From Escherichia coli (GTDB lineage: Bacteria > Pseudomonadota > Gammaproteobacteria > Enterobacterales > Enterobacteriaceae): 64,000 nt of DNA. Location of the stretch: assembly GCF_009931435.1 (NCBI RefSeq), contig NZ_CP043414.1, one strand, 5' to 3'. The position numbers and the translations under genes were made by a program. Each line of letters begins with the position of its first letter. Within the stretch, counting starts at the first letter, position 1. Shown in pieces: positions 7,830 through 9,714 of the stretch. The notes under the pieces were generated by a model, which saw only the letters and a list, made by a program, of their open reading frames with translations, made no database searches and was not told the origin of the DNA.

Positions 7830-7845
7830 TGGCATCCGCTTTGCA
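7830..7845 (+). promoter_or_regulatory. Sigma-54 (-24/-12) promoter of the rut operon
   Basis: TGGCAT-ccgct-TTGCA matches TGGCAC-N5-TTGC(A/T); the rut operon is known to be NtrC/sigma-54 dependent. Confidence 0.6.
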
Positions 7846-7873
7846 AACAAACCATTACGCGGCTGAAAAGGAT

Positions 7874-9714
<1,841 letters not shown>

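Follow-up and report, generated by a model that had tools for sequence, protein, structure and literature searches.

The sigma-54 promoter of rutA in an Escherichia coli rut locus, the probable start of RutA at ATG 7931, and a conserved block in the rutA leader

The consensus for NtrC binding is TGCACC-N5-GGTGCA. For the rut operon of E. coli, the legend to Fig. 1a of PMC10891134 assigns NtrC sites to the rutAG promoter, and the RutR operator in the rutA intergenic region was identified as a RutR target by ChIP-chip (PMC2475637 Table 1). Sigma-54 ChIP-seq in MG1655 has placed a peak (OS10) upstream of b1012 rutA on the 17-mer CTGGCATCCGCTTTGCA, which is identical to that found here (Bonocora 2015, PMC4591121 Table 1). 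The EcoCyc status of the rutA promoter is given there as "P" (predicted), and an RpoN genomic-SELEX peak was reported in the same spacer (PMC8743547). Furthermore, ribosome profiling has shown that both the mRNA level and the translation efficiency of rutA-G rise under nitrogen limitation (PMC9624429). RutA has been crystallised as a 363-aa protein (PDB 6SGG), as a 364-aa protein (6SGL) and in a tagged 382-aa form (5WAN).

In this study, a 64-kb stretch of E. coli DNA (the window, meaning the whole stretch analysed) was followed up at its putA / rutR / rutABCDEFG region. A 501-base query (7600-8100) matched 5,421 of 5,426 complete E. coli genomes, with rutR and rutA as the features beneath the match, and the window strain is 97.4% identical to K-12 across these positions. 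In the open reading frame (ORF) list, rutR lies on the minus strand, divergent from rutA, with putA upstream, while rutA runs from TTG 7841 to 9022 on the plus strand (393 aa). The ORF track, which takes the first NTG after a stop, over-extends putA, rutR and rutB as well, relative to RefSeq: putA begins at 2937 in the track versus 3003 in RefSeq (22 codons shorter), minus-strand rutR at 7670 versus ATG 7643 (9 codons shorter) and rutB at 8980 versus ATG 9022 (14 codons shorter). The RefSeq rutB ATG at 9022 overlaps the rutA stop, as TGATG. The features of the intergenic region are as follows.

7706..7722, plus strand: candidate NtrC-like enhancer site 1, TGCACTCTCATCGCGCA, by resemblance to the consensus; centre at about -142 from the predicted transcription start
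7727..7743, plus strand: candidate NtrC-like enhancer site 2, TGCATGTTTTATGTGCA, by resemblance to the consensus; centre at about -121, 21 bp from site 1
7750..7765, plus strand: RutR operator, TTGACCGTTTAGTCCA, given in PMC2475637 as the reverse complement TGGACTAAACGGTCAA
7829..7845, plus strand: sigma-54 promoter rutAp, CTGGCATCCGCTTTGCA, with GG 7831-7832 at -25/-24 and GC 7843-7844 at -13/-12
7856..7857, plus strand: predicted transcription start (motif centre 7837 plus 19)

The first-pass annotation had described a -24/-12 element, TGGCAT-N5-TTGCA, at 7830-7845 on the plus strand, and this element is indeed present, reading TGGCATCCGCTTTGCA (TGGCAT-CCGCT-TTGCA). The exact motif has a single match in the 64-kb window on both strands, with 0.05 expected from shuffled sequence (one match in 5 of 100 shuffles). 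When the motif was relaxed to TGGCAY-N5-TTGCW with one mismatch, 10 matches were found versus 7.0 expected, which is chance level. In the window, the exact match alone stands out, and the one-mismatch matches do not. One genome per species was scanned for loci encoding close RutA relatives, which yielded 80 loci, 79 of them usable. The -24/-12 element was located upstream of rutA in 78 of these 79, and TGGCA and TTGC are invariant in an alignment of 53 leader sequences. Because the motif coincides with a ChIP-seq peak and a genomic-SELEX peak and is present in 78/79 species-level loci, it is more than a chance occurrence; the rutA sigma-54 promoter is real and was previously known.

The two candidate enhancer sites both fit TGCAY-N7-GYGCA; 7706-7722 and 7727-7743 are putative NtrC sites by their resemblance to the NtrC consensus. 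Sigma-54 RNA polymerase would bind the GG and GC at 7831-7832 and 7843-7844. By the rule that the predicted transcription start lies 19 bp downstream of the motif centre (PMC4591121 Table 1 footnote), transcription would begin at about 7856, leaving a rutA transcript leader of approximately 75 nt. As neither a mapped rutA transcription start nor a native RutA N-terminus was found in the searchable literature, we infer both the transcription start at about 7856 and the RutA start codon. The start codons under consideration, and the ribosome-binding site that would serve the best supported of them, are the following.

7841..7843, plus strand: TTG, taken as "start" of the longest ORF (393 aa); artefactual, part of the -12 TTGCA (7841-7845)
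7874..7876, plus strand: ATG used in the historical K-12 and first-pass annotations (382 aa, MQDAAPRL); unlikely to be the main start of RutA
7919..7924, plus strand: Shine-Dalgarno (SD) sequence GAGAGG, 6 nt before ATG 7931
7931..9022, plus strand: rutA coding sequence, best supported (363 aa, MKIGVF), with stop TGA at 9020-9022

Several lines of evidence point to ATG 7931. RefSeq PGAP annotates rutA as 1,092 bases from the equivalent of 7931 in both E. coli genomes inspected, including K-12. Positions 1-354 of the family model TIGR03612 align to residues 31-384 of the 393-aa ORF (723.7 bits versus a cut-off of 498.3, a full-length equivalog match), and residue 31 corresponds to 7931; the model start thus agrees with ATG 7931 and not with 7841 or 7874, and both the RefSeq start and the TIGR03612 start are set by computational convention. 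The tblastn match starts with the first residue of MKIGVF in 79 of 80 loci. Likewise, ATG 7931 is kept in all 78 promoter-bearing species loci (78/78) together with an SD-like motif at -14 to -4, with a GAGG-type site 6 to 8 nt upstream. An in-frame stop separates the predicted transcription start from the rutA ATG in 44/78 of these loci, and in only 19/78 does any in-frame ATG precede the rutA ATG by more than 6 nt. The duplex of GAGAGG with the 16S 3' end was calculated at -8.6 kcal/mol with 6 nt spacing, versus -5.4 kcal/mol and about 1 nt at 7874. RutA of the window is identical to the proteins of PDB 6SGG and 6SGL except for one residue. An ATG at 7928, directly before 7931, would add a single Met; it is found only in Escherichia and in a single Leclercia locus, and conservation within Escherichia cannot separate 7928 from 7931. 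From these sequence features, RutA most likely begins at ATG 7931, at most at 7928, and would be translated mainly from ATG 7931, served by the GAGAGG Shine-Dalgarno.

The 19 codons between 7874 and 7930 behave differently from the coding sequence that follows. In E. coli SCPM-O-B-8794 (locus L003:1399-1506), whose rutA diverges from that of the window by 7.3% at the nucleotide level, the codon corresponding to 7910-7912, within the supposed extension, is TGA in place of CGA. Leaders of this type are present at 99% identity or more in at least 15 complete E. coli genomes, among which the 12 listed are identical and have rutA annotated. In the lineage with this TGA, the 382-aa form is naturally knocked out. 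Compared with the window, the extension in this locus carries 4 non-synonymous changes (one of them a stop) and 1 synonymous change, versus 5 non-synonymous and 71 synonymous changes in the coding sequence from 7931 (Fisher p = 3.6e-4). This substitution pattern argues that 7874-7930 is not evolving as part of the protein. In the orthologues, ORFs that cover the core of a conserved leader block (described below) share the rutA frame in 13 of 38 leaders, the one third expected by chance. Judged by stops (44/78), frame (13/38) and substitutions, the extension is neither kept in frame nor under purifying selection in orthologues; it evolves like non-coding DNA. Finally, nine species have a short rutA leader of approximately 30 to 37 nt, which leaves no room for the extension:

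Promoter GG at -57 to -62 from the rutA ATG: short-leader loci L015, L021, L034, L035, L038, L041, L044, L077 and L078

These taxa belong to the Enterobacter cloacae complex, Buttiauxella, Dryocola and two Rahnella, and the conserved block is absent from them. As nine species lack it, the block is dispensable in some lineages.

The block itself is the part of the rutA leader in which conservation is concentrated.

7857..7896, plus strand: conserved leader block, containing ATG 7874, GGA at 7870-7872 and 7879-7881, and the palindrome UGCA-GGA-UGCA at 7875-7885

Its pattern can be written as [A/G]CG-N-[G/C]GC, about 8 nt, GGA, 3 to 5 nt, (U)GCAGGA(U/A/C)GCA, then GC(C/A)-N-CG(U/C). Mean column identity is 0.67 in the block, 0.26 and 0.38 in the leader flanks, 0.81 in the promoter and 0.72 in the SD region. 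A covariance model (R1) built from 31 leader sequences gave one match per locus in 50 species loci and in the window (7857-7896, 48.2 bits), all on the plus strand and 30 to 75 nt upstream of the rutA ATG; no match elsewhere was found in 381 kb on both strands. The block occurs in Enterobacteriaceae, Erwiniaceae and Serratia, and a related version was recognised by eye in Rahnella. A second tiny ORF is located at 7881-7898 on the plus strand (ATG CAG CGC CCC GTC TGA, MQRPV*), its ATG lying inside CAGGATGCA. The GGA at 7870-7872 sits 8 nt before ATG 7881, a distance more favourable for an SD sequence than that at ATG 7874, and ATG 7881 is present in just about 60% of the aligned leaders. Downstream of the block, the leader (7889-7912, plus strand) is C-rich and G-poor (CCCCGTCTGACTTTCACTTTAC), as it is in other genera; in composition it may resemble Rho-utilisation sites.

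Only weak indications of RNA structure were obtained for the leader block. An Rfam scan of 7700-8000 at E <= 10 returned a chance match to a Bacteroides sRNA alone, RNAalifold predicted no leader helix from 53 leaders, and the E. coli leader, folded on its own, was no stabler than shuffles (z = +1.08). A helix drawn by hand pairs 7857-7862 with 7889-7894 and includes UGCA-GGA-UGCA; pairing is seen in 82% of its cells, but true covariation is confined to one pair (GC 34 / AU 7), and sliding the register by +2 gives a similar covariation score. Inspection led us to reject the block as an NtrC, RutR or Nac site, because of unsuitable half-site spacing or the lack of any match. The block was also rejected as a part of the RutA protein, given its random rutA frame, the stops and the non-coding substitution pattern; the in-frame rate of 13/38 in particular argues that it is no extension of RutA.

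The longer forms of RutA can now be weighed against the 363-aa protein. We give next to no credence to a 393-aa RutA made from TTG 7841 on a transcript beginning upstream of the sigma-54 promoter. This codon does open the longest reading frame, and RutR repression might in principle mean another promoter. However, TTG 7841 is the -12 TTGCA itself and, being upstream of the predicted transcription start at about 7856, falls outside the sigma-54 transcript, so that it would be a part of the promoter that is not transcribed from it. The location of this ORF-track start inside the -12 element had been recognised in the first-pass annotation and was borne out here. In addition, the anti-SD duplex at TTG 7841 is only -1.5 kcal/mol, so that a ribosome-binding site is almost absent, and a scan of 7600-7960 revealed no sigma-70-like promoter able to feed this start. 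The frame upstream of 7874 is not conserved, and the same longest-ORF rule over-extends putA, rutR and rutB versus RefSeq. The first-pass annotation had further proposed that a start shorter than 7841 is the real one, and had chosen the next in-frame ATG, 7874 (MQDAAPRL). The first half of that argument holds, as 7841 is ruled out and 7874 is indeed the next in-frame ATG, whereas 7874 as the real start is unsupported and 7931 fits better. Rejecting 7841 does not imply 7874, because a third start, ATG 7931, had been left unconsidered. A RutA of 382 aa beginning at 7874 behind an 18-nt leader corresponds to the old K-12 annotation. PMC4591121, which used the U00096.2 annotation, places the rutA gene start 18 bp after the predicted transcription start, and as 7856 plus 18 is 7874, the U00096.2 start is this same ATG. 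Papers based on U00096.2 accordingly use it: the RutR site distance of -114.5 in PMC2475637 is nearest to the 7874 start, to which we count -116.5, 2 nt off the published value. Furthermore, both the window and K-12 have an open frame running from 7874 into rutA, an AAGGA that could pair with the anti-SD abuts the ATG, the 382-aa form was used for PDB 5WAN, and the peptide start MQDAAPR recurs in several Enterobacteriaceae. Against this stand the SD spacing of only about 1 nt, the RefSeq and TIGR03612 starts at 7931, the lack of purifying selection on 7874-7930, the E. coli lineage with an in-frame TGA after the 7874 equivalent and rutA annotated intact, and the nine species without the 7874 segment altogether. 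The ORF from the 7874 equivalent is also out of the rutA frame or stopped earlier in about two thirds of leaders. Initiation at 7874 as the main start of RutA is therefore regarded as very unlikely. As the frame is open here, the ATG lies 18 nt from the predicted 5' end and AAGGA is adjacent, some initiation at 7874 may yield a minor 382-aa isoform in strains with an open frame, and the crystallisation of the tagged 382-aa form (5WAN) indicates that the 19-residue extension is compatible with RutA folding. With RutA beginning mainly at ATG 7931, ATG 7874 would sit in the leader, its frame open into rutA by chance in this E. coli, and the 19-codon "extension" would be no conserved part of RutA. 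The 382-aa protein of older annotations arose because the 7874 frame happens to be open into rutA.

ATG 7874 could instead begin a separate upstream ORF (uORF; MQDAAPR...), conserved in Enterobacterales, that modulates rutA, for example by termination-reinitiation, and that in E. coli is accidentally fused in frame. Counts of reading frames favour this idea: of 46 distinct leaders, 38 have an NTG in the Q-D/E-A frame from which an ORF would cover the core, versus 14 and 3 for the other two frames, and the frame of the uORF relative to rutA is random. These counts are confounded, as the conserved TG also belongs to the UGCA palindrome, and sequence relatedness inflates all of them. Several such uORFs end at TGATG or ATGA overlapping the rutA start, variation in the block falls mainly at third codon positions, and an insertion of 3 nt is present in Serratia (L068). 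The rise in translation efficiency of rutA-G under nitrogen limitation (PMC9624429) would also suit a uORF. However, the start codon is absent or replaced (TAG, CAG, CCG, CTG) in taxa that keep the block (Erwinia, Serratia, K. indica), and the GGA at 1 to 3 nt from the ATG is too close for an SD sequence. Literature searches for a uORF or leader peptide at rutA returned nothing usable. On this evidence, a modulating uORF is considered unlikely, with somewhat better prospects than a 7874 start of RutA. As to binding by CsrA, the second GGA (7879-7881) is conserved and lies in the UGCA/UGCA loop of the minimum free energy (MFE) fold, that is, as a GGA in a hairpin of the kind expected for a CsrA site. 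By analogy, the GGA motifs of the block may recall CsrA sites; a literature search found no paper linking CsrA and rutA. We tentatively suggest, as a possibility that we hold to be less than even, that the block is a previously undescribed cis-regulatory element of the Rut operon, shared by Enterobacteriaceae, Erwiniaceae and Yersiniaceae and acting either as a short uORF (M-Q-D/E-A-x-P/Q-R...) or as a GGA hairpin bound by a protein such as CsrA. If so, the operon would be regulated post-transcriptionally as well, through mRNA stability or translation, beside its known control by NtrC and RutR, and the block might relate to the increase in rut translation efficiency under nitrogen limitation. 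The increase reported in PMC9624429 is compatible with control at the level of the leader, short of proof.

Overall, we are confident that the promoter in the window is the known NtrC-activated, RutR-controlled sigma-54 promoter of rutABCDEFG and that RutA starts mainly at ATG 7931. Both the promoter and the 363-aa start are already in public resources, and the choice of start codon is a routine matter of annotation. It nevertheless carries a caution about the longest-ORF track, which over-extends rutA, putA, rutR and rutB in the window, and it illustrates that the next in-frame ATG past a promoter need not be the real start. The 382-aa RutA of older K-12 work, including one crystal construct, probably has 19 residues that are not native. 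The sole part that might be new is the conserved leader block, which if functional would be of moderate interest for the regulation of nitrogen stress and pyrimidine catabolism.

Leaders bound by CsrA, such as that of flhDC, carry GGA in the loop of a short hairpin and have two sites close to the 5' end. The rutA leader block is similar in having two GGA close to the predicted 5' end, separated by about 10 nt, the second of them within UGCA-GGA-UGCA, but it differs in that no GGA of the block overlaps the rutA SD and in that covariation gives weak support for the structure. Compared with the RutA family (TIGR03612; FMN-dependent pyrimidine monooxygenase, luciferase-like monooxygenase family), the ORF of the window is a full-length equivalog match, of which the 393-aa and 382-aa versions carry 30 and 19 residues, respectively, outside the family model. 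With NtrC-dependent sigma-54 promoters of the glnAp2 type, rutAp shares the -24 GG / -12 GC core, two tandem candidate NtrC-like sites approximately 120 to 140 bp upstream, and an AT-rich spacer between these sites and the core; it differs from them in having a RutR operator between the enhancer and the core promoter. The closest described system is E. coli K-12 rutAp (OS10) itself, from which the window promoter does not differ: the 17-mer is identical, both lie in the rutR-rutA intergenic region, and in both the predicted transcription start falls 19 bp from the motif centre.
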